From Dehalococcoidia bacterium (GTDB lineage Bacteria; Chloroflexota; Dehalococcoidia; UBA2979), in contig JADLFF010000037.1 of assembly GCA_020845735.1 (NCBI GenBank), forward strand, positions 2,615 through 66,614: 64,000 nucleotides of DNA. The letters run 5' to 3'. The notes under the pieces were generated by a model. That model was not told the DNA's origin. It did no database searches and worked only from the letters and a program-made list of their open reading frames with translations. Below, piece after piece: positions 7,103 to 21,605 of this stretch; position 1 is the stretch's first letter; the number at the start of each line of letters is the position of its first letter. The position numbers were made by a program, and so were the translations under genes.

Positions 7103-7409
7103 TCTTCGAATCTTCGATGAAGGCTGACCGGACCACCGCGACTACGTCGCCCTCCTCTCGCTGCACACGATATCTCCGATCGTCCGGCGGACATGTGACC
7201 CGCGGGCAACTCGCGATCTTGCCCGCGCGGCCGGGACGCGCGACGAGTCGCGCTCTAGCGTCGCAGGTGCTGCGGGAGGGCTGGACACGAGCGGGCCGCC
7301 AGCCTCGGGACGGGACCGGCGGGTCAGGGCAGTGCCAGTCGGATCGTCGCAAGCGTCGTGCTGTGCTCCTCGGCGAACTGACCCTCTCGCAGCGCCAGAG
7401 TCCCTGCTA

Positions 7410-7439
7410 TTGAAATGCGTATACCACTTATCATATAAT
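7410..7439 (+). promoter_or_regulatory. Near-consensus sigma70-type promoter TTGAAA-N18-TATAAT (leaderless transcript predicted)
   Basis: TTGAAA at 7410–7415 and TATAAT at 7434–7439, in an AT-rich island inside 70%-GC DNA. The -10 box overlaps the first ATG (7438); the second in-frame ATG (7453) lies about 7–8 nt past the predicted transcription start. Confidence 0.45.
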
Positions 7440-7452
7440 GGCGAGGTCGAGC

Positions 7453-8337: not shown

Positions 8338-8341
8338 TCCT

Positions 8342-9775
8342 ATGCAACTGCCCTGGCGGCATCGCGGCCCGAGGCTCGACCTCGGGACGCACGGCGCCGC
8401 CTTCTTTCCACGCACGCTCGCGCTCGGCGCGGAGCACGTCGCGGCGCACAAGCACGTGATCGGACTGACCGGCCAGGGGAAGAGCAAGTTCCTCGCGAGT
8501 ATGTTCGTGCAGCTCGTGCGGCAGGGTGTCGGCTGCACGCTCATCGACCCGCACGCGGACCTCGCCACCGACATCCTGGCGCTGCTGCACGACGACGGAC
8601 TGTTCTCAAGGTCGACCTTTGCTGATCGACTGCTGTACGTCGACTTCGCCCGCCGTGACCGCTTCCTGCCATTCAACGTCCTGAGCCAGCCGTACGACGA
8701 CCACACCGCGGCGCGCAACGTGGTCGAGGCCTGTAAGCGTGCCTGGCCGGCGCTCGCCGACGGTTCGGCGCCCCAGTTCGAGAACATCCTCCTCGCGGGC
8801 GCGCTCGTGCTGATTCAAAACCAGCTTCCATTGACGGCGCTGCCGCGACTCCTCACGGACAAGCTGCATCGCGACTCGCTGCTCGAGCGCGTCTCCGACG
8901 AGGCGGTGGTGGACTTCTTCCGCGGGCGGTTCGATCACTGGGGGCGCGACGCACCGCTAATGATCGAGTCGACGCTGCGCCGGGTCTTCCTCCTGTCCTT
9001 CAGTCCCTCGCTTCGCCACTCGCTCGGGCAGCGCGAGAACGCGCTCAACTTCCGCGCGCTGATGGACCAGGGGGTGAGCGTCATCTTCAACCTCGGTGGC
9101 CTCGACGAGGACACTCAGCGCCTGCTGGGGTCGCTCGTGACGGTCGGCTACGAAGTGGCCGCGCTCTCGCGTGCCGACACGCCGCTGGCGCAGCGCCGCC
9201 CCCACCACCTGTTCATCGACGAGTTCTCGCAGTTTTCGGCACAGAGCGAAGAGGCGTTCGCGCGCGTCCTCTCGCTCGCCCGCAAGTACGGCCTGTTCCT
9301 CACGCTCGCTCACCAGACCTGGTCACAGGTGAATCGTCGCCTGCAGGGGGCGCTGCAGAACGCCGTCGAGGTGGCGTTCAAGCTCGGGCGCAGCGACGCC
9401 GAGTGGGCGGCTCCCCGCTTCGGCCGCTTCGACCCGTACGCGTTGAAGCACGAGGTCGCGGACCCGGCGCACGTCGAGCGCACACACCCCGTGTACTTCA
9501 ACGTCCAGGAGACGTTCGAGGGGTGGACGCAGGCTCTCACCGACCTCGCTCCGCGCGAGGCGTTCGTGCGTGTCGGCAACGAGACGACGCGATTCCGGTC
9601 GCGCGCCGTCCCCACTCCACGCTGCGGAGCGGAGGAACTGCGGAGCTTGACTGACGCCTATGCCCGACGCCTGCTGCGGCCCGCACCCCTTGCGCCTGGC
9701 GCTCCAGCTCGCCGGCCGAGCGAGACCCGCGCGGCGTTCCGACGCGTCGTCCTCCGACCGGAACCGGGCGTCTGA
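8342..9775 (+). CDS. TrwB/TraD-like (type IV coupling protein-like) AAA ATPase, soluble, paralog 1
   Basis: Walker A HKHVIGLTGQGKSKF followed by LIDPHADL (compare TrwB GATGTGKS...VDPNGDM). Walker B-like HHLFIDEFSQF then ARKYGLFLTLAHQ. No N-terminal TM segment. Track start 8264 overlaps the upstream gene; in-frame ATG 8342 is preferred. Confidence 0.65.
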   Translation: MQLPWRHRGPRLDLGTHGAAFFPRTLALGAEHVAAHKHVIGLTGQGKSKFLASMFVQLVRQGVGCTLIDPHADLATDILALLHDDGLFSRSTFADRLLYVDFARRDRFLPFNVLSQPYDDHTAARNVVEACKRAWPALADGSAPQFENILLAGALVLIQNQLPLTALPRLLTDKLHRDSLLERVSDEAVVDFFRGRFDHWGRDAPLMIESTLRRVFLLSFSPSLRHSLGQRENALNFRALMDQGVSVIFNLGGLDEDTQRLLGSLVTVGYEVAALSRADTPLAQRRPHHLFIDEFSQFSAQSEEAFARVLSLARKYGLFLTLAHQTWSQVNRRLQGALQNAVEVAFKLGRSDAEWAAPRFGRFDPYALKHEVADPAHVERTHPVYFNVQETFEGWTQALTDLAPREAFVRVGNETTRFRSRAVPTPRCGAEELRSLTDAYARRLLRPAPLAPGAPARRPSETRAAFRRVVLRPEPGV

Positions 9776-9783
9776 TGGTGCCC

Positions 9784-9840
9784 GGGACGGTCATGGGCCC
9801 GAGCGCAGCGAGCCGGGGGCGGGGAGGCCTTGACCGTCCC
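9784..9840 (+). terminator. GC-rich hairpin (9-bp stem GGGACGGTC/GACCGTCCC, long loop) just after the stop of the T4CP-like gene
   Basis: Inverted repeat read directly from the sequence. No U-tract, as is common in high-GC actinobacteria. Confidence 0.3.
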
Positions 9841-9922
9841 CGTCCGGATTACCCTCTTTCTCGGGTGGGGAAGGCAAGACGCTGGCCGCACCCCACCGTT
9901 CCCTGCGAGCCCCGGGGCGCTC

Positions 9923-9953
9923 GATTTGGTATACTGCATATACATTTGTTGGT
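9923..9953 (+). promoter_or_regulatory. AT-rich promoter/operator-like island (TTTGGTATACTGCATATACATTTGTTGGTATGG) immediately upstream of ORF 9954
   Basis: Striking AT-rich 31-mer in GC-rich DNA. Contains TATACT (-10-like), the GTATAC palindrome and the repeated half-sites TTGGTAT. Confidence 0.4.
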
Positions 9954-10466
9954 ATGGAACGGGACCCTGAAGATCATCCGCGACCGAGCGAGCGCTCGGA
10001 ACTGATCGCTTCTCAAGAGCGGGCGCTGACCGTGGCGGTGGTCATGCTGCTCGACGCGCTCGACCGCTGCGGGGGCCACGAGGCCGGCTGTCCCGAGTGC
10101 GGCCCGGCACGGGCACTCGCCTTTGAGACGCTCGCCTCCAGTCCGGGGCTGACTACCGCGCAGGAGCGGAAACCCGAACGTCTGCAGATCCGCGGGCGCG
10201 CGGGGGCGGCACCGGCTTTTGGGAGCACCCGGCGTGGCGCGGCAGTGGCGCGCTTCCCGCTTGCCGTGCACGACCAGACGGGTACGACGACGTGGCACAC
10301 CGTGGTGGCGTTCGGGGATCGAGCCGAGCGGCTGCGCGGCGCGGTCGGACGTGGAGATGCGCTCGAGGTCGTGGGCTACTTCCATGAGCGAGCCGTCCGC
10401 GCGCGCGGGGGTCGGCCCCGCCAGGTCCGTGAGCTCTACGCGGCGGCGGTGCGGCCGCTAGTGTGA
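9954..10466 (+). CDS. Hypothetical protein with C-terminal SSB-like OB-fold (ssDNA-binding-like)
   Basis: C-terminal ARFPLAVHDQTGTTTWHTVVAFGDRAERL...GDALEVVGYFHER...RPRQVRELYAAAVRP resembles the SSB core (RFSLAV...WHRVV.FGKLAE...G..V.VEG.L). The N-terminal half has no recognisable domain. Confidence 0.35.
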   Translation: MERDPEDHPRPSERSELIASQERALTVAVVMLLDALDRCGGHEAGCPECGPARALAFETLASSPGLTTAQERKPERLQIRGRAGAAPAFGSTRRGAAVARFPLAVHDQTGTTTWHTVVAFGDRAERLRGAVGRGDALEVVGYFHERAVRARGGRPRQVRELYAAAVRPLV

Positions 10467-10469
10467 CCG

Positions 10470-11138
10470 ATTGGTGCCCGTCAGGCACCGCCATCGTTCG
10501 CGACCGAGCGATCGGCCCGGCGGTGCTGTTCGCGACCGTCGCCACACCCGGAACGGGTGCCCGCGCGGAGCGCCTCTTCCTGCCTGCCGAGGGGGTCAAG
10601 GGGGAATCGGCAGGTGGTCGGCCCCCCGCCGGGGGGTGCCCTCTCGCCGCCGCGATGGCAGCACGTCGGATGAGTACAAACAGTGCTCAGTGGAGAGACA
10701 ACGTGGATGCAGAGGCGAGAGGGCGGGGGGAGTGGGCGGCAACGCCGCAGGCGTTAGGAGCGAGCTCCGGGCTGCCCACTCCCCCCGCCCGCAGGGCACC
10801 ATCCGAGGCCCAGCCTCGGACATCCCCCTTGCTTCTGTCCGTCAGGACCATCCGGCGGGTCGCGCCGACTAGGGTGTCGACTTCTAGTCGAGACTCTAGT
10901 CGGTCGGGGGGCGGTTCGGTGTTCCCCGCAACCTCCCTTCTCCTCTTGCTTTTGCATTGTCCCGGCTGGGTCTTCTTTCAATGAGTATGTTTCGTCTGTG
11001 TATTCTTCCGCACCGTCGCACGCGCGGATCAGCCCGTCGTCATCCGCCGATTCGAACCGTGCGGAAGTCGCGATTCCCGACTTCTGGACGTCGTGATTGC
11101 CGACATCTGGATGTCAAGAAATACGACATCAGCCTGGG
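10470..11138. other. About 670-bp non-coding region rich in inverted and direct repeats between convergent genes (candidate oriT / origin / ncRNA locus of the mobile-element-like module)
   Basis: 17-bp perfect stem 10721–10737 / 10774–10790 with a nested hairpin AACGCC-gcag-GGCGTT (10741–10755). Palindrome cluster CCGACTAG...GTCGAC...CTAGTCGG at 10865–10903. Two 16-bp palindromic sites CCGACTTCTGGACGTCG (11078–11093) and CCGACATCTGGATGTC (11100–11115) spaced 22 bp, plus a third half-site at 11123–11130. Track ORFs here are low-complexity and on both strands. Confidence 0.45.
10473..10489 (+). terminator. Stem-loop GGTGCC-cgtca-GGCACC 7 nt after the ssb-like stop
   Basis: Perfect 6-bp GC-rich inverted repeat directly downstream of the TGA at 10464–10466. 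Confidence 0.3.
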
Positions 11139-11489
11139 TCAGCGGTTGGGCGTGCTTTGAACGCGGAAGCGGAGGGTGTAGCGGTTCGTCTTGCCGAGGC
11201 CCAATCGCTTGACCTGCACGAAGCCGGCGCGTTCGAGTTGATGGATGAAGGCGACCACGCTCTGACGGCTCACACCGATGTCGCGCGCGAGGGTCTCTTG
11301 CCCGGGGAAGCAGAAGTCGTTGTGCCAGGCGTAGGAAAGGAACATCGCGTAGGTGAGCTTGGCGCCCATGCTCAGGCTGCTGCTGCGCAGAATGAAGTTC
11401 GGGACCTGAGTGAACCCCTCAGCGAGAACCGGGTCGTGCGCCTCGAGCACGATCGTGCGCTCGCGGAGCAGGTCGCCGATCGACTTCAC
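11139..11489 (-). CDS. Winged helix-turn-helix protein (phage/plasmid replication-initiator RepA_N/DnaD-like HTH)
   Basis: GFTQVPNFILRS...AKLTYAMFLSYAWH...CFPGQETLARDIGVSRQSVVAFIHQLERAGFV is the typical RepA_N-like wHTH pattern. GTG start; GTGA overlap with the upstream gene. Confidence 0.5.
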   Translation of the reverse strand: MKSIGDLLRERTIVLEAHDPVLAEGFTQVPNFILRSSSLSMGAKLTYAMFLSYAWHNDFCFPGQETLARDIGVSRQSVVAFIHQLERAGFVQVKRLGLGKTNRYTLRFRVQSTPNR

Positions 11490-11995
11490 GATCGGCCCTC
11501 CTCGTCGAGCACCTCGGTGGTCGCCGACCCGCGCACGAGCGTGCGGTAGACGACCGACTCTTCCCAGGCGCTCTCACAGTCGGCGCGGAGGAGGTCGAGC
11601 GCAACCTGAACGAGCGCGTTCGCAGTGATCCTGGCGCCGTAGCGCTCCTCCAGCTCGAGCTTGAGGTGGCTCATCCAGCGGGCTTGATCGACGTAGATGT
11701 CGTGGGAGTAGCGACGCGCGCGACGTGGCGTGGTGGCGCTGGGCGTGGCCTGACCCGTTCCAAGCTCCGGGCGTACGGGCGCACCGGCGTTCGGACCCAC
11801 GCCCGCACGAGTGCTCGAGGGTGCGGGCGTTCCAGCGAGCGAGGCAGCACGTCCACGGGTGAGCGTCGAGCCCAGTCTGGGTGCGGGCGAGCCTTCGACT
11901 GCCGGTTCCGTCGGTGATGGCTGGCTGAAGAGCCGTTGTTCGCGTCCCGGCGTCTGCGCGCTGAGCTTGAGGCCGGAGAAAACGCTATCGGACAT
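11486..11995 (-). CDS. Hypothetical protein (start trimmed to MSDSVF, preceded by a GGAGG RBS)
   Basis: The track ORF runs to 12205, but its first 70 residues are R/S-rich shadow sequence. ATG at 11995 has GGAGG 7 nt upstream. No recognisable domain. Confidence 0.3.
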   Translation of the reverse strand: MSDSVFSGLKLSAQTPGREQRLFSQPSPTEPAVEGSPAPRLGSTLTRGRAASLAGTPAPSSTRAGVGPNAGAPVRPELGTGQATPSATTPRRARRYSHDIYVDQARWMSHLKLELEERYGARITANALVQVALDLLRADCESAWEESVVYRTLVRGSATTEVLDEEGRS

Positions 11996-12839
11996 CGGCG
12001 GCCTCCTTCCTCGCGAGGTTCTCGCGTCGATCGTCGGCGACGCTCTGGACGATCGCTCGGCTGACGGTTCGGGATTGCCGGTGGAACGCGAGCAGGAGCG
12101 AATTGTCGGCGAGGATGTTCGCCTCGCGCGGCGTCCCTTCGGACTGCTCGAAGATCGTCGCGACCGCGTCTCGGCTGAACGGATGGTGTCCCCCGCCCGA
12201 GGCAACCTGCCAGCGGAAGCGCAGCATCGCGTGCAGCTCGTCGAGGGACAGCCGCTCGAGCGTGGAGGCCATCACGATCCGGCTGCGGAAGTTCCGCAGC
12301 GCCGGGCGCGCGAGCGTGTTGCGGAGCTCGTCCTGTGCGAAGAGCACGAGCTGCAGAAGCTTGCTGTCGTTCGTCTCGAAGTTGATGAGCTGCCGGAGCA
12401 GTTCGAGGAGTGGGGGGCGTAGGGCCTGCGCCTCGTCAATGATGAGCACGACCGTGCGTCGCTCGGTCGCCGCGGTCGACCACAGGTGGTCCTTCAGCGT
12501 GTCGAGCGTGCCCTTGAAGCTGCGGCTCGTCCTCGGCGTGCCGAGCTCCTGCGCGATCGTGCGCAGCAGGCTGTTGGGTGTGGGGTAGTTCGGGTTGACC
12601 AGCAGCGCGGACAGGAAACCCGCGTCGAGGAACTTCTGGTGGAGCAGGCGCGCGAGCGACGACTTGCCCGTGCCGGTGTCGCCGTGCACGACGGCGAGGC
12701 CCTTGTGCGCCGCCACGACGTACGCCGTCTTCTCAAGGGCGGTGGAGTGCATCGCGGTCAGGAAGAAGTAGCGCGGTGAAGGGACCGTGGAGAACGGTTC
12801 CTCCTTCAGACCGAAGTACGCGAGATGGGGCAAATCCAT
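11985..12839 (-). CDS. ExeA/GspA-like AAA ATPase (AAA_22 family)
   Basis: N-terminus MDLPHLAYFGLKEEPFS matches the ExeA-type YLxHFGLxExPF start. Walker A GDTGTGKSSL, Walker B VLIIDEAQAL. Track start 12953 trimmed to the ATG at 12839. Confidence 0.7.
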   Translation of the reverse strand: MDLPHLAYFGLKEEPFSTVPSPRYFFLTAMHSTALEKTAYVVAAHKGLAVVHGDTGTGKSSLARLLHQKFLDAGFLSALLVNPNYPTPNSLLRTIAQELGTPRTSRSFKGTLDTLKDHLWSTAATERRTVVLIIDEAQALRPPLLELLRQLINFETNDSKLLQLVLFAQDELRNTLARPALRNFRSRIVMASTLERLSLDELHAMLRFRWQVASGGGHHPFSRDAVATIFEQSEGTPREANILADNSLLLAFHRQSRTVSRAIVQSVADDRRENLARKEAADVR

Positions 12840-12922
12840 AGGTGAGGCGCCGAACTTGGGCCAGGTCGCGGAGCGAGGGGCCAGAGTTGGCGCAAATTCA
12901 TTGTATAGCACGGACGTGATGA

Positions 12923-13192
12923 TTGCAAGAAGTCCCGTGCGCCTCGTCCACACGGGGGTGCGCGACTAGATTCGGGGCTGACGGACAGGAGCAGGCCTCG
13001 AACGAGGAGTGGATCTCGCTCTCGGAGGCGGCCGAGCGCAGCGGTCTGAGCACGAGCTACCTTCGGCGGCTCTGCCGGCGGGAGGTCATCTTCGCCCGGA
13101 AGTTCGGGCAAGACTGGCTCACGACCTGGGACGCAGTGGCCGCCTACCTCGGGGACCCCGACAAGCGGAAGCGGGGACCCCGAGCTCGATAG
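12923..13192 (+). CDS. Small helix-turn-helix DNA-binding protein (excisionase/AlpA-like)
   Basis: ISLSEAAERSGLSTSYLRRLCRREVIFARKFGQDWL is an HTH_17/Xis-like pattern. TTG start in track; true start uncertain. Confidence 0.4.
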   Translation: MQEVPCASSTRGCATRFGADGQEQASNEEWISLSEAAERSGLSTSYLRRLCRREVIFARKFGQDWLTTWDAVAAYLGDPDKRKRGPRAR

Positions 13193-13317
13193 CCACCCTT
13201 GTATTTGTTCCGACACCGGACCTAATATACGCGGGCGTTGACGAGAGGAGGGCATCCATGGTCGGGGCCGGTGGTGGCAGCTGAACGGAAGGCGGGCTGG
13301 AGCCCGCCTTCTTCGTG

Positions 13318-13869
13318 CTACCAGTCCCACAGGATCGTGAAACGCTGCCCCAGTCGTGGGGCTTGCTCCGAGTATCCGATGCACTGGCGTCGATCGTCCG
13401 TCCAGGTGGGCGGGACCAGGACTCCTTCAGGTTCGTCGAGCGTCACGACACGCGCGAGCTTGACTGGTCGCTCGGCGGGAAGCAGCACCCCGAGGTCGAG
13501 CGAGTCGGTGGGGTGATAGAGCTCGGCCTCCAGCCACCACTCCGAGGGTGACTCGAATCCGCGCTGAACGAGGCGCTCAATCGTGAACGTGTGCACATCA
13601 CCTGCTCGTTGTCGGGCGGGCAGCGCCACTGTCGAGCGCAGCCGGGGACCGATCAAGTGCCTCGCCGTGAGTTTCCCAGGGTCGACATCGTGGTCCGCAA
13701 AGGCGATCCCGTCGCCCCACCCATAGTCGAAGATTTTGTCCGCATCCTTGAGGAACTCGACCGTCTCGGTTCGTGTGTAACGCGCTCGCTCTCCTGACAG
13801 GTCGAGGAGCTCTACACGCGCTGCATACCGCAACACACGGTAGGTGAAGGATGGTCGCGGTCGGTCCAT
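13318..13869 (-). CDS. Hypothetical protein (183 aa), divergent from the second T4CP-like gene
   Basis: Coding-like composition. No recognisable motif. Confidence 0.3.
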   Translation of the reverse strand: MDRPRPSFTYRVLRYAARVELLDLSGERARYTRTETVEFLKDADKIFDYGWGDGIAFADHDVDPGKLTARHLIGPRLRSTVALPARQRAGDVHTFTIERLVQRGFESPSEWWLEAELYHPTDSLDLGVLLPAERPVKLARVVTLDEPEGVLVPPTWTDDRRQCIGYSEQAPRLGQRFTILWDW

Positions 13870-14012
13870 AGCTCATTTTACCGGTCGCGGTCAGAGCGAT
13901 TTCACTTTGGCGCGCCACGGCGGGCTGCACGGGGCCTTGACAGCCTTCCGAATCGCCTCGGTCCGCCCCGCGATCGCTACGCTCTCGCCGAGACTGTTGT
14001 CCGGGACGAGGG

Positions 14013-16217
14013 ATGCATCCGGTGGCAGACGGCAAGATTGATCTCGGAGTTGAGCTGTTCAATGGAGAACCGGTGCGGCTCGGCCTCCGTGAACGTCAGC
14101 AAGGCACCTACATCCTCGGGAAGCCCGGCACGGGCAAGACGACACTGATAGAGCGCATGGTGCTGCAGGACATCGAAGCCGGGCACGGCGTCTGCGTGCT
14201 CGATCCCCACGGTGACCTCGTCGATGGCGTACTCGTCCAGATCCCAGCGCACCGCGAGCACGATGTGATCCTGCTCGACGCCGCGGACACGGACTTCCCG
14301 TTCGGCCTCAACCTCTTCGAGTGCCGCGACCTCACCGATCGGACTCTCGTCGGCCGAATCGCCGCCCAGGCCGTGGAGGTCTTCGAGAAGCTGTGGGGCG
14401 ATATTTCGTGGGGCCCGCAGCTGGCGCAGACGCTCCGTAACAGCGCCTACACGATGATTGAGAACGTGGGGTACACGCTCCTCGAGGTGCGGCGGCTGCT
14501 ACTTGATGAGGAGTTCCGGGCGCGACTGACGGCGAACCTCACGCTCGGCCAGGTGCGTGAGTTCTGGGAGCTCGAGTACAACCCCCTTCTACGCCGCGAA
14601 CAGCAGCAGCGTGTGAGTTCCACACTGAACAAGATTGATGAGTTCCTCACGCCGGCGGTCTACCCGATCGTGGGGCTCGGACGCACCACCGTCGACTTCC
14701 GGGCCGCAATGGACGCGGGCAAAGTCGTGCTCGTGAAGCTGCCGGTGGGTGTGCTCGGGGGCGATCCGGTCGCGCTGATCGGCTCGATGATCGTCGCGCA
14801 GATATTCAACGCCGCGCTTTCGCGCCAGGAACTCGACCCCGGCGCGCGCCGCCAATTCAATCTGTTCGCCGACGAGTACCACCGATTCGCGACGCCGACC
14901 TTCGCCGAGCTCCTCGCGGAAGCGCGCAAGTACGGCCTCGCTACCTTGCTCGCTCACCAGTTTCGGGACCAGCTCGACGAGCAGAACCGCGGCGCGACGC
15001 TGACCGCGGGGAACCTCCTCGTGTTCGGCGTGGGCGGCGGCGATGCCGAGGAGCTGGCGAAGCAGTTCGACCGCACGCCGCCCCCGCCAGACGTCGTGGG
15101 GCAACGGCCGAAGCTCACCGTGAACCAACGGCCGATCGAGCACCTGGTGAGACACGGACACGACAGCGACTTCGTACGCAGGGCGGTCGCCGCCTGGGTG
15201 CAACCGCTCGCGCATCGGGTGGAGACGATGCCCTCGGGCGGGGTGGCTGCCTCGACGCTACGCGTTCCAATCGAAGGACGCACCTCACCGATCGAGGTGG
15301 AATACGTCGCCGATGGCGGTTCGCTCCGGGCCGGCGCGGCGGCGATCGACGGCTTCTTGGTCAACGTGATGGAGCGGCGACTGAACCTTGGTACTGCGGC
15401 CGAGATCAGCGCGATCGCCCACGTGATTGCGCTCTTGCGAGCGCATATCTGCTTCGCGCCAGAACTGACCTTTTACGACGTTGATTACCCGTCTGTGCTC
15501 TCGGATCCCTCGCTGGAGTTGCCAGAGGCTACATCGCGCGCGCTGCTCGCATTCTTGACAGACTGGCTTCCCGATCGGGCGGCGCACCGGAACGCCGAGA
15601 GTCACACACGCGCGGGCGTTCTCGCACACCCAGCGGCGTCGCGGCTCGTCGAGGCGAGACTCTCTCACCTGAAATGGATCGACCAGCAAGAACAGGGCAT
15701 GGCGGAGTCCGAGGCGCTCAGGAATGCGGGGCCATTCACGACCGATCTCGCTCCGTTCGTCGATGAGGAACGACGAGAACGCGCGAGGGGTCATCCACAC
15801 CGCGCGGGCACCGAAACCTACGCCGCCGCGCGGCTCGCGTGGCAGTTGCACACGCTTGCCCTGGCTCTGCTGCGGGAGCCCATCTTTGTCGACAGCGGTC
15901 AGTGGGAGCCGATCTACGACCGTCCTCGCTCCTACGCGGACGTCGAGGGCGAGATTGCGTCGCGGTTGGTGAACTTACCGAAGTACCAAGCTCGAGGACG
16001 GCTGCTCGTCGACACCAACGTGCGCGAGGTCGACGTACAGACGCCAACCTTCGAGAACAGGCAGGCGACCGAGGAAGGCATCGCGCGCGCCGAGCGAATC
16101 CGAGCTCGCTCCCGGAGGGACTACTGCCTTCCGCTCGCGCGGGTCCTCGAGATCATCGCAGCGCGCGGGCGCGACGATCCACCACAAGAATCGACGCGGC
16201 GACGGGTTCCGATCTAG
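14013..16217 (+). CDS. TrwB/TraD-like (type IV coupling protein-like) AAA ATPase, soluble, paralog 2, with about 350-aa C-terminal extension
   Basis: Walker A YILGKPGTGKTTL then VLDPHGDL. Walker B-like FNLFADEYHRF then ARKYGLATLLAHQF, collinear with paralog 1 (8342–9775). No TM segment. C-terminal 350 aa without recognisable domain. Stop codon abuts the tRNA-like repeat A. Confidence 0.65.
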   Translation: MHPVADGKIDLGVELFNGEPVRLGLRERQQGTYILGKPGTGKTTLIERMVLQDIEAGHGVCVLDPHGDLVDGVLVQIPAHREHDVILLDAADTDFPFGLNLFECRDLTDRTLVGRIAAQAVEVFEKLWGDISWGPQLAQTLRNSAYTMIENVGYTLLEVRRLLLDEEFRARLTANLTLGQVREFWELEYNPLLRREQQQRVSSTLNKIDEFLTPAVYPIVGLGRTTVDFRAAMDAGKVVLVKLPVGVLGGDPVALIGSMIVAQIFNAALSRQELDPGARRQFNLFADEYHRFATPTFAELLAEARKYGLATLLAHQFRDQLDEQNRGATLTAGNLLVFGVGGGDAEELAKQFDRTPPPPDVVGQRPKLTVNQRPIEHLVRHGHDSDFVRRAVAAWVQPLAHRVETMPSGGVAASTLRVPIEGRTSPIEVEYVADGGSLRAGAAAIDGFLVNVMERRLNLGTAAEISAIAHVIALLRAHICFAPELTFYDVDYPSVLSDPSLELPEATSRALLAFLTDWLPDRAAHRNAESHTRAGVLAHPAASRLVEARLSHLKWIDQQEQGMAESEALRNAGPFTTDLAPFVDEERRERARGHPHRAGTETYAAARLAWQLHTLALALLREPIFVDSGQWEPIYDRPRSYADVEGEIASRLVNLPKYQARGRLLVDTNVREVDVQTPTFENRQATEEGIARAERIRARSRRDYCLPLARVLEIIAARGRDDPPQESTRRRVPI

Positions 16218-16272
16218 CCTCGGGAGACTTCTAATCCGAGAGCCGGAGGTTCGAATCCTCCCGGGGGCGCCA
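16217..16272 (+). repeat. 56-nt tRNA-like mini-element, copy A (acceptor-like 5' strand, T-arm GGAGG-TTCGAAT-CCTCC, acceptor 3' strand, G, CCA)
   Basis: GGTTCGAATCC T-loop plus CGGGGGC-G-CCA 3' end. The 5' GCCTCGG can pair with the 3' CGGGGGC (one G-G mismatch). No D-arm or canonical anticodon arm could be folded. About 85% identical to copy B at 20800–20855, with boundaries exactly at nt 1 and CCA. Confidence 0.45.
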
Positions 16273-16276
16273 GTAG

Positions 16277-16486
16277 CTAGAGTGTTAGGACCCGGCGAGC
16301 CCTTGCCAGCGCCTCTTCGAGCGCCGCTGCCTCGCCAGCGATCATGTCAGCTTCTCGCTCGAGTTCGGACCAGAAACGTTCGTGGAAGCTTCGCGCGGTG
16401 TCATCTCGCCAGTGCTCCGTCGCTGTTGCCCACTCCGCCTTGATCCGGCGGGCGTCGTCGGCCAACATCTCGGCCCCCCCTCCCAA
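16277..16486 (-). CDS. Small helical protein (69 aa), last gene of the FtsK/WXG-like operon
   Basis: Start 2 nt after the upstream stop. Helical, charged (AEWATATEHWRDDTARSFHERFWSELEREADMIAGEAAALEEALA). No database-level assignment possible. Confidence 0.35.
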   Translation of the reverse strand: MGGGAEMLADDARRIKAEWATATEHWRDDTARSFHERFWSELEREADMIAGEAAALEEALARARRVLTL

Positions 16487-16488
16487 CG

Positions 16489-17103
16489 TTAGTCCCCCTT
16501 CTCGCCGCGCCCCGATTCTTCGAGGCGCTCCGACGGGTTCGGGACGCGGAACACCGCATCCCGTCCGTATTTCCCTTGGGTGCCAATGCGCTCGCCTAGC
16601 GCCCTCTCGGCGTTGATGGCGCTGGGTGCGGGAACTCCAGCCGTCGTCGACACGACGAACGACTGGTACTGCTCGATGCTGGCCATCCGAGCGAGAAGGC
16701 CGTTCTGCATGGTCGAGATTGCGTGGCTCAGATATTCACGGTGGCGGACGGCACTGGGGCGGAAGAGGCGAGCTGCCTCGTCGACGGCGTTGGCGGCTCC
16801 CTCGACCGCGGCGAGGCGAACACCTGCGCGTTGCACCTCGTGCGCGAGACCGCTGCAGTCGGGGCCCTCTCCTCCTTCGGCCGCCAGGGCCGCTCGGATG
16901 CATGCAGCGTAGGCGGCCTCTGCCCGCGCGAGCACGCCTTGCGCCAGACGCCGAGCCTGCTCAATGTCCGACTTGGTACGGTCTAGATCGTTAATAGCGT
17001 TCCGTAACCCGGCGGTCTGGCGGTCGACGACCGAGAAAAGCTGCTGCCGAAGGCGGTCCAGAGCGCCGTAGGTGACCTCAACCTGGTCAGCCATCCGTCT
17101 CAA
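16489..17103 (-). CDS. Helical protein (204 aa) with WXG100/LXG-like N-terminal region, candidate secreted substrate/effector
   Basis: ATGA-type overlap with the upstream gene. N-terminus MADQVEVTYGALDRLRQQLFSV has the WXG100/LXG-style start (x-I-x-V-x-Y-x-x-L). The remainder is helical with a distinct C-terminal tail. Confidence 0.4.
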   Translation of the reverse strand: MRRMADQVEVTYGALDRLRQQLFSVVDRQTAGLRNAINDLDRTKSDIEQARRLAQGVLARAEAAYAACIRAALAAEGGEGPDCSGLAHEVQRAGVRLAAVEGAANAVDEAARLFRPSAVRHREYLSHAISTMQNGLLARMASIEQYQSFVVSTTAGVPAPSAINAERALGERIGTQGKYGRDAVFRVPNPSERLEESGRGEKGD

Positions 17104-17375
17104 GCCTCGAGGAACGCGCGTAGGCGTTCGATGAGTCGGAGGAGATGGCTTTCGTGGTCGTCGGTAACGGCGAGATAGCGTTCGATCCCCTTCCCGACTT
17201 CCTCTAGCGCCGTACCGAATTCCGCATACTTCTGGTCGGTCCAGGTTCCTCCGAGGTTCCGCCAGTCGGCGACCATGCCCCTGTACTCGGCCTCGAGCGT
17301 GTCATCGAAACGAATCAGATGGTTGCGAAAGTCGATGAGCGCTTGGACGCTCCCCACGCCAACGCGGTCACTCAT
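17100..17375 (-). CDS. WXG100-like small helical protein (91 aa)
   Basis: Trimmed from track ORF 17100..17612 to the ATG at 17375 (GAAGGAGA RBS 5 nt upstream; ATGAGTGA overlap with the FtsK-like stop). Helix-turn-helix hairpin layout with central DWRNLGGTWTDQKYAEF. About 90–100 aa, the size of ESAT-6-like proteins. Confidence 0.4.
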   Translation of the reverse strand: MSDRVGVGSVQALIDFRNHLIRFDDTLEAEYRGMVADWRNLGGTWTDQKYAEFGTALEEVGKGIERYLAVTDDHESHLLRLIERLRAFLEA

Positions 17376-20300
17376 GCGCGTCTCCTTCAGCTGGAAGCAG
17401 GTCGTTGAGTCCGGCTGCTCCCAGCAATCGATACGGCTTGAACTTTTCCGTGCGCCCCAGCGCCCACTCTTCGTGGCGGAACAGGGCGCGGTTGTCCGCG
17501 AGCCGGCTGGCGACAGGTGAGTCGAAGAGCGAGTTGGAGTCGGCCTCGGGTACCCGGAGGGATGCCCGTAGGTCGAATCGCGACGTTCCCTGGCGGCCGA
17601 GAACGCGTTCAACGGCAGTCAGGCCATCCGTCCATGCGATCACGTGCCACCCTTGGTCCGGACCCTCGTCCGCGAGGCGTAACAAAGAGGTCGCCTCGGG
17701 TGTCTGCTGGTATGCATCGGGACCGCGGAGCTCGCGCCAGCGCTGGAGGCCAGTCACGACCAGGTAGCGAGGGCCGCGGGTTGCGTCGCTCGCGGCGAGG
17801 CGTGCATCGAGGTCCTCGAGGGCCGCGCCTAGCGCGGACCCAGCCTCGCGTGGCCCCGCGACCGAAACCTGGTTCGGGATGCGCTGCTGAAGCGCTGCCA
17901 TGACGCTGGACAGTGGACCGGTGCGTGCGAAGTCGAGGACGTAGAACGCAGCATCGGGCTGTTCGAGCGCGAGCGACACGACCACGGCTTCGAGGAGACC
18001 GTAGGCGTCAAGCTCGTCCGGGCCCGCGATCAGAAGGTTATTGCGAGGGAAGCGCTCAAAGCGTGCCGCTGTCGGCCCTTTGACTTCGACGGGTTCACCG
18101 AGGAACGCCTCGGCGGTGTCAGGGTCGGGTCGCCAAGCGCCGATCCGCAGCTCCTGCAACCTGGGATTTCCGGTCAACGAGGCCGGCGTCGTGCCCTCAA
18201 AGGTCGCGGGTGGAGGGTGTGCGCCGCCGTCACGGTCGGCGATCGCGGTGACTCTGGCCCGATGCTCGTCGCCAGGAAGTAGGGCCACGCGGATCCGGTG
18301 GTTCGCCGCGGTGTGACCAAAGTCCTCGTTGAGGATCGCCTCCCCCGGCTCTTCGAGCCGGGATGCAGCAACGTTTCCGTCTCCGAGGATTGCAGTCGAC
18401 GTCGCGTCCGAACTCTTGAACGCGACTCTTAACGGCATCTGTTCGTAGACGCGAGTAAGGTATCCCGACACGCCGGCCGGGGTTTGCGACGCCAGCAAGA
18501 CGTGGATCCCGAAGCCGCGGCCACGTCGGACCAAGTCCTCGAGAATCGCCCCGGCCTCGCGGCCGAGTTGGTCCTCGTCTGAGACGAGGACCTGGAACTC
18601 GTCCACGACCAGAAGGAGGCGAGGCATCGTGCCACCACGTGCACGGAACTCCGTGTATTGCGAGGCCCCAGCTTCTCGGAAGCGGCTCCCCCGGGCCTCG
18701 ATCTGAGCACGGAGGTCGCGAAGCACGCTGAGCGCGAACTCCCGATCGGTAGCCTGAGTAACCGCGCGAGCGTGCGGAAGCGCGAGGTAGTCGACGAACG
18801 AGACTCCTTCTTTGAGGTCAAGGAGGTAGAGGCCTAGCTCATCCGGCGAGTACCGAGACGCCAGTTGATCGATGAGGAGAAGGAGAAGGTTGGTCTTGCC
18901 TGACCCGACCATGCCGCCGACGAGGGCGTTGTGGATTGTGCCGGTGCCGAGGTGGAAGCTAGTGCTCTCGCCTTCGAGTGCCATTCCGATGGGCACCGAT
19001 AGGCCGTCGGCCGTGCTTGCGGCCCAGTCAATTGGGACAAGTACATCCGAAGAATCGAGCGCTCGGGGCCGCCCGAAGGCAGCGCGAACCCCGTCGAGCG
19101 CCGATTCGACGGTCGCTGCGTCCGGAATCTTCGACGGTACCAACGGAAAGTCCCCTAACAGGGCGCCGGGCAAATGCACGACGCCGACCTCGTTGACCTC
19201 CAAACGGCCCCACGGTCGGAAGGCATCGGCCAGCTTCATGTCGCGTGGCATTGGTGCGGCGGGGTCGAGTGTGGCTACGACGTGGAATCCTGCCCGCGGC
19301 CCGTTCCGGGCAAGGCGCGCAAGCAAATCGAGTGCCCGCTCGGTCCAGCCACCTGCAGGCAGTCTCAAGATCGCAACCAGGCGGTGCGGCTGCGCTAGCG
19401 CTGGGTTCGCTGCGTTGTACTCGTGGATCGTCGAGAAGCGCGCACCGAGCCGCGTCTGAAGCACGTCCTCACACTCCCGAGCGAGCGTCTCGAGCTCACG
19501 CTCGATTTCGTTTGAGCTCGTCAGGACGCGCTCCCCACGGATCGCGGGCGGGAGAGACAAGAAGGCGGATAAACCTTGGCCGGCGCCTACGGGATCAATC
19601 AAGGTCAGCCGAATAGCACCGGATGCGCTACCGGTGACCAGCTGGAACACGGTGGCACGAAGTAGGTCATCGCGATAAGCAGCGGGTCCGCCGTCGATGC
19701 CGAGGTGCCTTTGAGATAGCAGGAAGAACACCGCCAATGGGCCGAGGTCGTTCTGGAAGTCGATTGCTCCGATTCGTGCCGTGACCCCGTGGCGCAGAGG
19801 ATCTCCCGCAAGCGCGTCGAGCATGACGCGGATGATCGGCGGCGCACCACCCCCCAGCATCCGGACCATCTCTTCGAACGCTGCGACCGCCTCCTCGTGC
19901 CGTCCGAGTTGCGTGAGCTGGATCGCGCTGCTCATCAGAGTCCGGTCAGGCTGTTTGCGTCCTGCAACCGCAGGGTCCTGGACAGCCGCGATGACCGCAG
20001 GCGGCGGTGCAGCGACTCGAACGCCACCTTTCGCCTCAACCGCCCACGTCCCACTTAGCGAATCGTGCCAAGTGCGCTTTTCTGGGTGCCAAGCTGCCCA
20101 GACGTAGCCCAATCCGAGCGAGAGTAGGCTTAGAAATGAGGCGAGAAGCCGACCAAGCGCGCGCCCAGCACCGGGCCGATTGCCCTCTGAGTCGACTAGG
20201 CGAACGCCCACGAGCATGTGGCCCAGCGTTTGGCCACGTGCCCAGAAGAACCAGAAGTAGGCTACGAACACGACATTGCTGATGAGCTGTCGTGCTTGAT

Positions 20301-20499
20301 CGTTTTGGCCGAGGATCGCGCTGACGACTGAGATCAGGACACCGTCGATGATGTGACCGATCGCACGAGCCCAAAAGCCAGCGTAGACGCGGTCAGTCGG
20401 CGTCGCCGTTGATGGACGCACGTTCTGAGCTGCGCCGCAATGCGTGCAGAACGCCGCGCCTGCGGCAACCTCACGACTACAACTCGGGCAAGACGCCAT
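17368..20499 (-). CDS. FtsK/SpoIIIE-family ATPase with three P-loop domains (EccC/EssC-like) fused to N-terminal zinc-ribbon + RDD membrane domain
   Basis: N-terminus: CPSCSREVAAGAAFCTHCGA (Zn-ribbon), then an RDD pattern (YAGFWARAIGHIIDGVL...GQTLGHMLVGVRLVD...RTWHDSLSGTWAV). Domain 2 has canonical Walker A GGMVGSGKTNLLL and Walker B LLLVVDEFQVL. Domains 1 (VGAGQGLS) and 3 are degenerate, as in EccC D2/D3. Confidence 0.75.
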   Translation of the reverse strand: MASCPSCSREVAAGAAFCTHCGAAQNVRPSTATPTDRVYAGFWARAIGHIIDGVLISVVSAILGQNDQARQLISNVVFVAYFWFFWARGQTLGHMLVGVRLVDSEGNRPGAGRALGRLLASFLSLLSLGLGYVWAAWHPEKRTWHDSLSGTWAVEAKGGVRVAAPPPAVIAAVQDPAVAGRKQPDRTLMSSAIQLTQLGRHEEAVAAFEEMVRMLGGGAPPIIRVMLDALAGDPLRHGVTARIGAIDFQNDLGPLAVFFLLSQRHLGIDGGPAAYRDDLLRATVFQLVTGSASGAIRLTLIDPVGAGQGLSAFLSLPPAIRGERVLTSSNEIERELETLARECEDVLQTRLGARFSTIHEYNAANPALAQPHRLVAILRLPAGGWTERALDLLARLARNGPRAGFHVVATLDPAAPMPRDMKLADAFRPWGRLEVNEVGVVHLPGALLGDFPLVPSKIPDAATVESALDGVRAAFGRPRALDSSDVLVPIDWAASTADGLSVPIGMALEGESTSFHLGTGTIHNALVGGMVGSGKTNLLLLLIDQLASRYSPDELGLYLLDLKEGVSFVDYLALPHARAVTQATDREFALSVLRDLRAQIEARGSRFREAGASQYTEFRARGGTMPRLLLVVDEFQVLVSDEDQLGREAGAILEDLVRRGRGFGIHVLLASQTPAGVSGYLTRVYEQMPLRVAFKSSDATSTAILGDGNVAASRLEEPGEAILNEDFGHTAANHRIRVALLPGDEHRARVTAIADRDGGAHPPPATFEGTTPASLTGNPRLQELRIGAWRPDPDTAEAFLGEPVEVKGPTAARFERFPRNNLLIAGPDELDAYGLLEAVVVSLALEQPDAAFYVLDFARTGPLSSVMAALQQRIPNQVSVAGPREAGSALGAALEDLDARLAASDATRGPRYLVVTGLQRWRELRGPDAYQQTPEATSLLRLADEGPDQGWHVIAWTDGLTAVERVLGRQGTSRFDLRASLRVPEADSNSLFDSPVASRLADNRALFRHEEWALGRTEKFKPYRLLGAAGLNDLLPAEGDAHE

Positions 20500-20799
20500 G
20501 TCGGCAGTTATACGTGGTTGCGCGACATCGATCGAGGAAAATCCAGAAATCGATCCGGTCCGCCAAACACACCTGTTGGGAGCCCAGCCGCGGAGGCGAC
20601 CGGCGCCGGGTGAAGACTACACGCGCTACCCGGCGTGATGAAGTCCCCGCCGCGCGCTGGGCAGCAGCGCCGAGCGCGGTAGAATCCCCAGGTCCGTTGT
20701 CGTTCGGGCATGACCGGAGGACTCGTTCACCTGCCCTGCAGGCAGGGCTGCCTCATCAGATTCGGCCCGGCACCTCGAGGCGCGATTCGCGGGCGAGTT

Positions 20800-20855
20800 G
20801 CCTCGGGAGACTTCTAATCCGCAGGTCCCAGGTTCGAATCCTGGCGGGGGCGCCA
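20800..20855 (+). repeat. 56-nt tRNA-like mini-element, copy B (T-arm CCAGG-TTCGAAT-CCTGG, acceptor CGGGGGC-G-CCA)
   Basis: Same architecture as copy A. The T-stem differs from copy A by compensatory changes on both strands (GGAGG/CCTCC versus CCAGG/CCTGG). Preceded by palindrome CCCTGCAGGCAGGG (20731–20744). Confidence 0.45.
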
Positions 20856-21026
20856 GCTGTCCGACCACCCACCCCCGTCGAGGGCAGCCCAACGCGATCC
20901 CACAGGCGATCCCGACGCGCATCCCTCGCGGCCACCTCCGGCCGCGCCGAACCTGACAGCGCTTCACGGCGCCCACAAAACGCGTATATAGTCCCGAGGC
21001 ATTACGCCCGCATTCCCGGAGGGCTC

Positions 21027-21605
21027 ATGTCCCACCGCACCTGGATGACCGCAACGTTCGCGACGTGGTGCCTGCTCGTCGCAGCGTGCGGAGGCGAGAC
21101 CGCGCCCACCGTCGACAGGACCGACGTCGCCACCAAGGGCGTCACCGACAAGACCGGCTCAGGGTCGAGTTCGTCCAGCGGATCGACCGCGAGCAAGGCG
21201 GCCACCGGCAAGAAGCTCCCCGGAGGCGTGTGCCAGCTCCTCACGGTCGCCGAGGTCGAGGCCGTGGTGAAGTCGGGCCAGACGCTCACGACGGTGGAGA
21301 GTGCGCCCGATCCCACCAGCGAGCGGAGCTGCATCTTCGTGGTAGCCGGTGCGGCGCCGATCGTGGCCCTGTCGCTCCAGGGTGAGCTCGAGCCACTCGA
21401 CTGGCCCGCGATCAAGGCGCTGCCCGGGGCGAAGACCGTGTCAGCCCGGGGTGGCGAAGCCGTGTTCTGGCCGACGACCAACGTGCTGTACGTGCAGAAG
21501 AACGGCCTGGCGGTGACCGTCCAGGTCGTCGTTGCACCCAGCGGCGAGACCGTCGAGTCCGCCTCGAGCAAGCTGGCGCAGCCCATCGTCGACCGGCTGC
21601 CATGA
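21027..21605 (+). CDS. Lipoprotein (signal peptide + LVAAC lipobox), paralog 1
   Basis: MSHRTWMTATFATWCLLVAACGG lipoprotein signal, then S/T-rich linker and CQLLTVAEVEAVV core. Track ORF 20409.. trimmed to ATG 21027. Confidence 0.55.
   Translation: MSHRTWMTATFATWCLLVAACGGETAPTVDRTDVATKGVTDKTGSGSSSSSGSTASKAATGKKLPGGVCQLLTVAEVEAVVKSGQTLTTVESAPDPTSERSCIFVVAGAAPIVALSLQGELEPLDWPAIKALPGAKTVSARGGEAVFWPTTNVLYVQKNGLAVTVQVVVAPSGETVESASSKLAQPIVDRLP

Follow-up and report, generated by a model that had tools for sequence, protein, structure and literature searches.

Two 56-nucleotide tRNA-like repeats in a Dehalococcoidia genome as probable attachment sites of mobile elements inserted at a tRNA-Arg(UCU) gene

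The stretch of DNA analyzed here (the window, 64,000 nucleotides from a Dehalococcoidia bacterium) begins within a genomic island, termed island A, of approximately 17.6 kb and a GC content of 0.65. Its genes and the other features of the locus are compiled in Table 1. Among those typical of mobile elements are Replic_Relax, two TraD/TrwB-like ATPases, SSB and a type I restriction-modification system. The left end of the island is accessible through an assembled sequence, L144, that extends the window by 1,380 nt to the left and whose positions 1381-2132 match window positions 1-752 at 100%. The records place the tyrosine integrase P0190 encoded there, together with P0001 (T4CP-like) and the permease P0241, on a single contig of 102,708 nt. 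The gene backbone of island A, together with an integrase, recurs in the relatives L139, L141, L143 and L146; a tblastn search with 19 island proteins against 120 tRNA-Arg loci yielded no relatives. Island A is followed by segment B, which has an island-like GC content and in which none of the four genes encodes an integrase or recombinase.

Table 1. Features of the island array and its borders in window coordinates (negative values lie to the left of the window).
Feature	Position	Strand	Remarks
Third tRNA 3' end	-1379..-1352		On L144
Tyrosine integrase P0190	-1198..-143		PF00589; Xer-like by NCBIfam; 351 aa
Island A body	1..16216, starting 1,379 nt left of window	.	Integrative mobilizable or conjugative element
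hsdR	-41..2748		Pfam
hsdS, hsdM, Fic	Island A, after hsdR		Pfam
XRE-type HTH gene	6809-7102	minus	Pfam
Replic_Relax	7438-8337		Pfam
T4CP-like	8264-9775		Pfam
SSB	9954-10466		Pfam
HTH_36	11139-11489	minus	Pfam
AAA_22	~11985-12839	minus	Pfam
T4CP-like	14013-16217		Pfam
Copy 1	16217-16272	+	56 nt, ends in CCA
Left arm of copy 1 (GCCTCGGGAGA)	16217..16227	+	Element-derived; same as copy 2 arm
tRNA-Arg(UCU) 3' part T1	16228..16272	+	CTTCTAA to CCA; acceptor 3' strand CGGGGGC, G73
Segment B	16273..20799	-	~4.5-4.6 kb between the two putative att sites
63-aa protein	16277-16468		Segment B
201-aa protein	16489-17094		Segment B
91-aa protein	17100-17375		Segment B
1043-aa protein	17368-20499		Zinc ribbon, RDD domain, one FtsK/SpoIIIE ATPase domain
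Copy 2	20800-20855	+	56 nt, ends in CCA
Left arm of copy 2 (GCCTCGGGAGA), right end of segment B	20800..20810	+	Element-derived
Native tRNA-Arg(UCU) 3' part T2 (putative)	20811..20855	+	With its left arm, predicted attR and right border of array
Chromosomal flank downstream of tRNA gene	20856..21605	+	Same sequence follows uninterrupted tRNA in L154
First chromosomal gene	21027-21605		192 aa; GC3 0.90

Segment B is bracketed by two copies of a 56-nt repeat, whose location and terminal CCA are just as the original prediction had described them. The copies are identical at 48 of 56 positions and share their initial 22 nt, a 22-mer that occurs at no other place (none expected in shuffles). G16217, with which copy 1 begins, also completes the TAG that terminates the T4CP-like gene lying before it. 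Both copies possess the canonical T arm that had been claimed for them, built around TTCGAAT, and the two paired differences between the T stems, GGAGG/CCTCC in copy 1 and CCAGG/CCTGG in copy 2, are indeed compensatory. The accompanying statement that neither a D arm nor an anticodon arm can be folded overlooked the anticodon loop at positions 12-18 of each copy, CTTCTAA (anticodon UCU, Arg), behind which come the anticodon-stem 3' strand and a variable loop of 5 nt. The order in both copies is thus CTTCTAA, TCCG, variable loop, T arm, CGGGGGC, G and CCA, and because loop, stem strand and variable loop are present, 45-47 of the 56 nt are plain tRNA-Arg(UCU) 3' part, the remaining 9-11 nt being mobile-element DNA.

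In a search with a degenerate pattern, the copies proved collinear with about 100 intact tRNA-Arg(UCU) genes of actinobacterial and Chloroflexota origin, while 15 more matches in other genomes are fragments in which identity to the tRNA begins exactly at CTTCTAA. The matches to this pattern stem mostly from Solirubrobacterales. A reference case for the arrangement is provided by L089, where tRNA-Arg(tct) is followed by a tyrosine integrase (PF00589, 1.9e-29) and then by a fragment. With regard to the two 3' parts in the window, T arm, acceptor and CCA of T1 are the same as in a Dehalococcoidia tRNA in L059, and the T2 half is the same as that of an intact tRNA-Arg(UCU) of L031.

The left arm GCCTCGGGAGA is not tRNA sequence, as the uninterrupted gene of L154 (attB) and the complete tRNA of L059 show. 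Since the left-arm 20-mer CCTCGGGAGACTTCTAATCC has no exact match in IMG/VR, GTDB representative genomes or JGI metagenomes, the arm is not a widespread motif. A 23-mer specific for copy 1 likewise has no exact match in the JGI metagenomes, nor was the source tRNA of the T1 half found there. In view of these empty scans, support for the left arm at the level of an element family comes from one sister element.

This sister (L146/L143) consists of an intact tRNA-Lys(UUU), the integrase P0135 (60% identical to P0190), the same gene backbone and an attR 21.8 kb downstream. The tRNA at its attL position is complete, and L143 carries a single attR, which reads GCCTCAGGAGC followed by 45 nt matching the tRNA-Lys from CTTTTAA to CCA. 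The leftmost gene of L143 encodes a DnaJ-domain protein, the integrase lying one gene further left. Across the elements the left arm is conserved as GCCTCRGGAG, while the acceptor 3' strand is wholly different in L143; the block conserved in copy 1, copy 2 and the L143 attR opens abruptly at GCCTC and closes 0-2 nt past CCA.

These comparisons bear directly on the proposal that the copies encode a structured small RNA in the form of a tRNA-like minihelix or tRNA mimic, in which a GCCUCGG-CGGGGGC acceptor stem would be stacked on the T arm and which could be recognized by the CCA-adding enzyme, RNase P, EF-Tu or a synthetase. The terminal CCA of both copies and the compensatory T-stem differences are in line with such an RNA, as is the fact that the Rfam models for tRNA (RF00005) and mascRNA (RF01684) can be aligned with each copy over its full length, giving a T arm and an acceptor stem with a single mismatch. 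A scan for promoters and terminators near the copies gave weak consensus matches, including a promoter-like site 115 nt upstream of copy 2 and facing it. The model scores, however, amount to 16.6-19.6 bits (16.6 and 17.7 bits for the tRNA model), far under the gathering scores of 29 and 42.5, with E values of 0.1-0.9 in a 300-nt search; at the gathering threshold Rfam returned no matches to the copies, and ARAGORN reported no tRNA genes at either of them. Folding energies are no better than those of shuffles (z = -1.0 and +0.7), and the minimum-energy folds are unlike between the copies, that of copy 1 even being devoid of the T arm. GCCTCGG does pair with CGGGGGC at 6 of 7 positions, but 3.7% of all 7-mers in the GC-rich window pair equally well, so that the acceptor-like stem that the starting G was thought to open does not rise above chance. 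The overlap of copy 1 with the stop codon of a protein gene is a further point against an RNA gene. The decisive one is provided by the sister element, in which the arm is kept (GCCTCAG) although the acceptor strand has changed from CGGGGGC to CGGGCCT, leaving 4 of 7 pairs. This is the opposite of the covariation expected from a minihelix; with an arm that persists next to a different acceptor strand, we regard the acceptor-like pairing as coincidence and a small structured RNA as very improbable.

Still less credence is given to the possibility that the copies are decayed tRNA-Arg pseudogenes, unconnected with integration, that lost the D arm by internal deletion. GCCTCGG shares 5 of 7 bases with GCCCCCG, the acceptor 5' strand of the real tRNA, and is placed by the tRNA model as positions 1-7, yet the 11-nt arm also stands before the tRNA-Lys fragment of L143, where the real acceptor 5' strand is GGGCCTG and unrelated to it. 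The same deletion would moreover be needed in both copies, and such decay would account neither for the integrase and third tRNA copy at the opposite end of the island nor for the state of the gene elsewhere, since copy 2 is the exact 3' end of a gene that is intact in L154, with the flank shared.

The latter contig (sample SRR6032603) contains the unoccupied site, i.e., the 5' part of the tRNA, the T2 3' half and 1 kb of the same flank. Its positions 12-1094 correspond to window positions 20809-21891 with 100% identity. It reads ACAGAGCAACGGA directly followed by CTTCTAATCCGCAGGTCCCAGGTTCGAATCCTGGCGGGGGCGCCA and then the flank of 1 kb; genuine tRNA sequence, ACAGAGCAACGGA, thus stands where copy 2 has the bases of its arm, and identity to the window sets in at 20809. 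The 5' bases match the intact Dehalococcoidia tRNA in L059; 13 nt of the 5' part are visible because the contig begins inside the gene. On this basis, T2 appears to be the native 3' half of the chromosomal tRNA-Arg(UCU), displaced by integration. The GC content is 0.65 until about position 21000 and 0.71 beyond, a step that coincides with copy 2, and the junction of segment B, copy 2 and chromosome was found in five further samples. A synteny search for an empty site was uninformative because synteny was lost: the closest permease homologue was 65% identical and had no tRNA nearby.

At the opposite border, L144 begins with 30 nt equal to window positions 16245-16274, i.e., T1 matches the tRNA 3' end before the integrase at 30 of 30 nt, including 2 nt past CCA. 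Between this tRNA 3' end and P0190 there are 153 nt. The final 28 nt of this leftmost tRNA copy are seen, from the T arm to CCA; L144 does not reach beyond the T stem, since every Logan contig breaks at the common block of 29-30 nt, as expected of a repeat. The leftmost copy is predicted to represent a complete tRNA rather than a third fragment, and attL would be positioned 1.35 kb left of the window. The original prediction had named an intact parent tRNA together with a cognate integrase at one boundary as the hallmark of plain att remnants, and both were largely found: L154 has the same 3' half and flank along with 13 nt of the 5' part, and P0190 is located in L144 behind the third tRNA 3' end.

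Taken together, it is very probable that the two 56-nt repeats are att sites, left behind when mobile elements integrated site-specifically into a tRNA-Arg(UCU) gene in the region of its anticodon loop, a model that covers every feature of the copies, the unoccupied site included. The array consists of island A and the integrase-less segment B (about 4.6 kb) at this gene. In a suggested course of events, the Xer-like P0190, encoded 1.2 kb left of the window, would recombine the attP of the element with the tRNA gene (attB). The attP is predicted to comprise an 11-nt half-site, GCCTCGGGAGA, then CTTCTAA, then a tRNA-like 3' half ending in CCA; we propose that the recombinase uses this 11-nt arm as its half-site on the P side of the att core. 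The crossover would take place within or beside GA-CTTCTAA-TCCG. An exchange in the T loop had also been considered and was discarded, as the assembly breakpoints predicted from it do not fit and the identity blocks put the exchange at the anticodon loop. The 3' half brought by the element would restore a working tRNA at the left end (attL), for which a 5' half of approximately GCCCCCGTAGCTCAGTGGACAGAGCAACGGA is expected, while the original 3' half would be moved to the right end, behind the left arm of the element (attR).

Insertion at the tRNA locus would have occurred at least two times. It would have resulted in the chromosomal order attL (outside the window), integrase, island A, copy 1, segment B, copy 2 and chromosome. 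Copy 2 would hold the native 3' half, whereas copy 1 would hold a foreign one, apparently delivered by the attP of a mobile element, that once completed the tRNA; left arm and T1 together would form an internal att site separating island A from segment B. Both copies thus look like attR-type junctions, each composed of an element left arm and a tRNA 3' part, in a tandem array. The earlier suggestion of attL/attR remnants was therefore right about att remnants, with 45-47 nt of tRNA in each, and wrong in pairing the copies as attL and attR of one insertion. The compensatory changes that separate the T stems are explained by the origin of the 3' halves, each of which derives from a functional tRNA-Arg or has to restore one; selection on RNA structure had been deduced correctly, but it acted on the complete tRNAs that each half was once part of or has to reconstitute and not on a 56-nt RNA.

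The origin of the array allows for a variant of the att interpretation, in which A and B were acquired whole as one composite element and copy 1 is an attP-like site retained inside it for a second recombination, through which the island could lose or swap its distal cargo module. Segment B lacks an integrase, and there is hardly any room for a P' arm in it because a gene ends 4 nt past copy 1. Copy 1 combines the element left arm with a 3' half of the element type and looks like a complete attP core, since 30 nt, reaching 2 nt past CCA, are common with the pre-integrase site; furthermore, whole accreted composites are known to transfer (PMC5704250). On the other hand, nothing separates this scenario from sequential insertion followed by decay, no sample features A alone or B alone, with assemblies breaking at the repeat, and the relative L143 has one attR. 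We consider single acquisition rather unlikely, though well ahead of the non-integration readings. With sequential insertion, segment B, having att sites at both sides (copy 1 and copy 2) and no integration genes, is probably a decayed or integrase-less, CIME-like element that was once independent, and it could still be excised by the integrase via copy 1 and copy 2. Products of excision, such as attP circles or alternative A-B junctions, did not turn up.

The att-site phenomenon as such is already known, while the element family in Dehalococcoidia is probably undescribed. The family may use a compact Xer-like core made up of the 11-nt half-site GCCTCRGGAGM and an exchangeable 45-nt tRNA cassette, with sister integrases of 60% identity retargeted between tRNA-Arg(UCU) and tRNA-Lys(UUU), the anticodon loops of which differ by one base. 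Segment B may at the same time be a live integrase-less satellite, with an FtsK-type ATPase and WXG100-like proteins, that has a complete att core and is moved by the integrase of island A. That both parts of this proposal apply together is a speculative notion to which we assign a low likelihood.

The main value of these results lies in correct annotation, i.e., the repeats are to be labeled as att sites or tRNA fragments and not as RNA genes; att scars at a tRNA are common and well understood and do not constitute a new small RNA. The repeats bound a polymorphic island array of about 22 kb with type I restriction-modification, Fic and conjugation- or mobilization-type genes in an uncultured representative of the Dehalococcoidia, a group in which mobile elements are poorly catalogued. 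They also call for caution, as compensatory changes in a tRNA-like repeat can stem from two functional parent tRNAs instead of selection on the repeat.

Displaced 3' tDNA fragments are established marks of island ends, and in one survey 2,083 of 3,919 islands had anticodon-centered sites while 125 were tandem arrays (PMC4383910); attR sites are also known to give rise to tRNA-like fragments (PMC9897764). The array resembles tRNA-integrated islands, ICEs, IMEs and prophages (Reiter, 1989; Williams, 2002, PMC100330; Islander, PMC4383910) in the integrase beside a tRNA 3' end, the replacement 3' half supplied by the element, the original half (anticodon loop to 3' end) directly repeated at the distal end of the island, the empty target site in a different population and the composition step at the border. 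Nothing differs in principle from these systems; the present case involves an uncultured high-GC MAG of the Dehalococcoidia (Chloroflexota) and a short (351 aa), Xer-like integrase, with site conservation confined to a compact core of about 58 bp. Accretion and CIMEs have been described (PMC5704250), and ICESt1/ICESt3 of Streptococcus thermophilus and Streptomyces pathogenicity islands (PMC5704250; ICEberg 2.0, PMC6323972) share with the present array tandem accretion, two modules in series at one tRNA gene and an internal att site. As in ICESt1/ICESt3-type CIMEs, the distal module is att-flanked and has no integrase. A CIME also has no transfer genes, stems from a decayed ICE or IME and is mobilized in cis by its neighbor; segment B retains an FtsK/SpoIIIE-type ATPase and is thus not clearly free of transfer-type genes. 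Strict Islander tandem arrays require an integrase of its own for each member, whereas segment B comes with a fragment of its own, copy 2, but codes for four proteins of which none is an integrase.

The repeats can be drawn with a T arm and a CCA-terminated, acceptor-like 3' end in the manner of mascRNA (RF01684), viral tRNA-like structures and minihelices, but they differ from such tRNA-like small RNAs in sub-threshold scores, unstable folds and the absence of acceptor covariation, and all bases are explained by an att origin. In pSAM2, an integrative and conjugative element of actinomycetes, the att identity segment measures about 58 bp and covers a tRNA-Pro gene between its anticodon loop and 3' end. 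The apparent likeness to pSAM2 comprises the approximate length of the identity segment and its position in the tRNA as well as Replic_Relax and FtsK/SpoIIIE-type genes, while host phylum, integrase lineage and gene backbone, which here includes two TraD/TrwB-like ATPases, SSB and AAA_22, set the two elements apart.

Both copies of the 56-nt repeat were recovered on the plus strand at the positions originally predicted, and they are identical at 48 of 56 positions. Their common 22-nt start, GCCTCGGGAGACTTCTAATCCG, occurs at just these two sites in the window, with none expected from shuffled sequences. In each copy, positions 12-18 (CTTCTAA) are an anticodon loop whose anticodon is UCU (Arg). 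Next come 5 nt of the anticodon stem (3' strand), a variable loop of 5 nt, the T arm, the 3' strand of the acceptor stem, the discriminator G and CCA. The original prediction had correctly recognized the T arm while overlooking this loop and stem strand. Six of the eight differences between the copies fall in the variable loop and the 5' T-stem region and two in the 3' T stem, and, as had been noted, the T stems (GGAGG/CCTCC in copy 1 vs. CCAGG/CCTGG in copy 2) differ by paired changes, i.e., by two compensatory pairs. The copies are an ordinary feature, namely the att sites of islands arrayed in tandem in a tRNA-Arg(UCU) gene.

Features of the island array and its surroundings (window coordinates; negative values lie left of window base 1)
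Feature	Position	Strand	Remarks
Third tRNA 3' end	-1379..-1352		On contig L144
Tyrosine integrase P0190	-1198..-143		On contig L144
Island A cargo	1-6799		Complete type I R-M system (hsdR, hsdS, hsdM) and Fic-domain gene
Genes left of copy 1			Type I R-M genes, Fic, XRE-type HTH, Replic_Relax, TraD/TrwB-like ATPase, SSB, HTH_36, AAA_22, second TraD/TrwB-like ATPase
Copy 1	16217-16272	+	
Segment B genes (n = 4)	within 16277-20499	-	1043-aa protein: zinc ribbon, RDD domain, one FtsK/SpoIIIE ATPase domain; 91-aa and 63-aa proteins: weak WXG100 similarity (E = 0.016 and 0.046)
Sigma-70-like match	20658-20685	+	TGGGCA, 16 nt, TAGAAT
Hammerhead (type II) match	20742-20767	-	
Copy 2	20800-20855	+	
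Second sigma-70-like match	20963-20992		
Acceptor 3' strand		+	CGGGGGC, precedes discriminator G and CCA in both copies

A scan of GTDB species representatives with a degenerate pattern built on the tRNA blocks of the copies gave at least 120 matching loci. About 100 among the matches listed are intact tRNA-Arg(UCU) genes of identical layout from Actinomycetota and Chloroflexota. The 3' half of an intact gene in locus L031 equals that of copy 2, and the T arm and acceptor of a Dehalococcoidia gene (L059) equal those of copy 1. Fifteen hits in 14 loci, again among the matches listed, are fragments resembling the copies, with a non-tRNA left flank and tRNA identity that begins precisely at CTTCTAA. 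In L089, 2.6 kb separate the fragment from an intact tRNA-Arg(tct) upstream of it, and a tyrosine integrase is encoded immediately behind that tRNA (PF00589, E = 1.9e-29). Such a layout is what integration into a tRNA gene at the anticodon-loop sublocation typically leaves. Islander lists a 3' tDNA fragment in 3,760 and an anticodon-centred site in 2,083 of 3,919 islands (PMC4383910), and attR sites are a recognised source of tRNA-like fragments (PMC9897764).

Four Solirubrobacterales MAGs (L048, L089, L106, L117) have a homologous left arm, …AATCTGGCTCAAC[CA]AAGCCAAA…ACGC[CG]T, immediately before the tRNA-Arg(UCU) fragment. This points to another family of small elements that is widespread at this tRNA; the 2.6-kb element of L089 encodes a PIN-domain protein besides the integrase. 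An Acidimicrobiales MAG (L124) contains two tRNA-Arg(UCU) 3' fragments on the minus strand (3001-3041 and 4735-4775), 1.7 kb apart, with left arms closely alike over at least 40 nt, and its 8-kb block lacks an intact tRNA; it is a further case of att sites in tandem at this tRNA species.

Proteins related to the T4CP-like protein are encoded in elements that share the gene backbone, and in one of these (L139) a tyrosine integrase is encoded at the left end. A search with this integrase retrieved P0190, a 351-aa Xer-like tyrosine recombinase that scores under the XerC and XerD cut-offs and is encoded on Logan contig L144. As L144 is 100% identical to window positions 1-752 over the overlap, it adds 1,380 nt on the left. 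It starts with GGAGGTTCGAATCCTCCCGGGGGCGCCAGT, the same as bases 16245-16274 of copy 1, and continues with 151 nt more, the integrase gene and hsdR; the 5' part of the attL tRNA lies beyond the contigs covered. A cognate integrase at one boundary, which had been named as a mark of plain att remnants, is thus found beside a third tRNA 3' end. All contigs with the T4CP-like gene (12/12) end at 16273 and those coming from the right end at 16245, because assembly graphs treat the 29-30-nt block as a repeat.

A look-up of the first chromosomal gene right of copy 2 gave five contigs, four of them with the occupied junction. The fifth, L154, stems from another sample, begins with ACAGAGCAACGGA directly joined to CTTCTAATCCGCAGGTCCCAGGTTCGAATCCTGGCGGGGGCGCCA, and then matches window positions 20809-21891 over 1 kb (100% identity). 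Instead of the element arm, it opens with D-stem (3' strand) and anticodon-stem (5' strand) bases of a real tRNA, which equal those of L059. L154 thus supplies, before the 3' half of copy 2, 13 nt of the tRNA 5' part that the original prediction had proposed to look for elsewhere. Copy 2 is therefore the gene's native 3' end, which the insertion displaced, and populations differ in whether they carry the island. The GC content is ~0.65 from base 1 to ~21000 and ~0.71 beyond, so that copy 2 lies on the GC step.

A sister element on contig JADEYI010000469 (L146, L143) consists of an intact tRNA-Lys(ttt), 163 nt, an integrase (P0135) 60% identical to P0190, the same backbone and, 21.8 kb downstream, GCCTCAGGAGC followed by 45 nt equal to tRNA-Lys from CTTTTAA to CCA. 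The 11-nt left arm of the copies (GCCTCRGGAGM) is therefore conserved beside a different tRNA. Among copy 1, copy 2 and this site of the sister element, conservation starts sharply at GCCTC and stops at most 2 nt past CCA. The arm was found in this one other element only, exact scans of IMG/VR, GTDB representative genomes and JGI metagenomes yielding no hits. We infer from sequence that it most likely serves as the half-site on the element side of a compact core for recombination; the arms of Xer-type sites are also 11 nt long.

Alternatively, the copies had been proposed to form a tRNA-like minihelix with an acceptor-like stem. GCCTCGG and CGGGGGC can indeed pair at six of seven positions, but 3.7% of all 7-mers in the window do equally well, and in the sister element, where the arm is kept while the acceptor 3' strand is changed to CGGGCCT, pairing drops to 4/7. 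ARAGORN detected no tRNA anywhere in the window, Rfam gave no match at the gathering threshold, with the tRNA and mascRNA models scoring just 16-20 bits, and folding of either copy was no better than that of shuffles, the folds of the two copies being different. Together with the sharp conservation edges, these results identify the acceptor-like stem as a coincidence.

In L141, a related element (T4CP-like protein 58% identical) is followed by two tRNA-Lys(UUU)-like 3' fragments (~18130-18195 and ~20170-20235) ~2 kb apart, with a DinB_2 gene and a 310-aa gene between them. Their left arms are ~70% alike and differ from GCCTCRGGAG, and the anticodon loop of the second is degenerate (CGTTGAG); the pair is possibly another tandem array or a decayed site. 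The Arg-targeting and the Lys-targeting element both have the motif GTCCTCAGGT ~30-50 nt before the start codon of the integrase gene (L144, 140-150; L146, 9946-9956). It resembles the left arm GCCTCRGGAG and may be another site in the P' arm to which the integrase or a regulator binds.

In island A, which extends from the third tRNA 3' end to copy 1, the last base of the TAG stop codon of the second TraD/TrwB-like ATPase gene is also the G with which copy 1 begins. The R-M and Fic cargo is located between integrase and conserved backbone, hsdR starting 41 nt before the window. In segment B, between the copies, no recombinase is present among the four genes, and the 201-aa protein has no matches. 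The 1043-aa protein shows partial NCBIfam matches to EccCa, EccCb and EssC, far under the cut-offs; the cargo looks like a minimal type VII-secretion-like module. Two sigma-70-like promoter matches were observed vs. 0.5 expected. The first, 115 nt upstream of copy 2 and facing copy 2 and the chromosome, could be an outward-reading promoter at the element end or due to chance, while the second lies ahead of the first chromosomal gene. The hammerhead ribozyme match just upstream of copy 2 is weak (16.8 bits, gathering score 37; E = 0.63 when 300 nt were searched) and most likely a chance match.

In the attP of this element family, the 11-nt arm would be followed by the anticodon-loop region and a tRNA-like 3' half. 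Integration into a tRNA gene would create attL, composed of the native 5' half and the element 3' half beside the integrase, and attR, composed of the arm and the displaced 3' half. In this model, attL and the integrase come first, followed by island A, which measures 17.6 kb between repeats, then copy 1, the 4.6 kb of segment B, copy 2 and the chromosome. No excision junctions were observed. Copy 2 carries the native half and copy 1 an element-type half, which has T arm, acceptor, CCA and the following GT in common with attL. The compensatory T-stem changes had been taken to suggest selection on RNA structure; they are better explained by working parent tRNA-Args than by the repeat itself, because each 3' half derives from, or must complete, a working tRNA-Arg. 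The proposal of att remnants at a tRNA 3' end agrees with the integrase and third 3' end on L144, the unoccupied site on L154 and the layout of the sister element. In the simplest history, insertion of a B-type element would have rebuilt the tRNA, and an A-type element whose core was near-identical would have entered that tRNA later, segment B having lost its integrase afterwards or never having had one. This is a known phenomenon in a little-studied host lineage, and the proposed history fits the scheme of accretion and CIMEs that PMC5704250 reviews.
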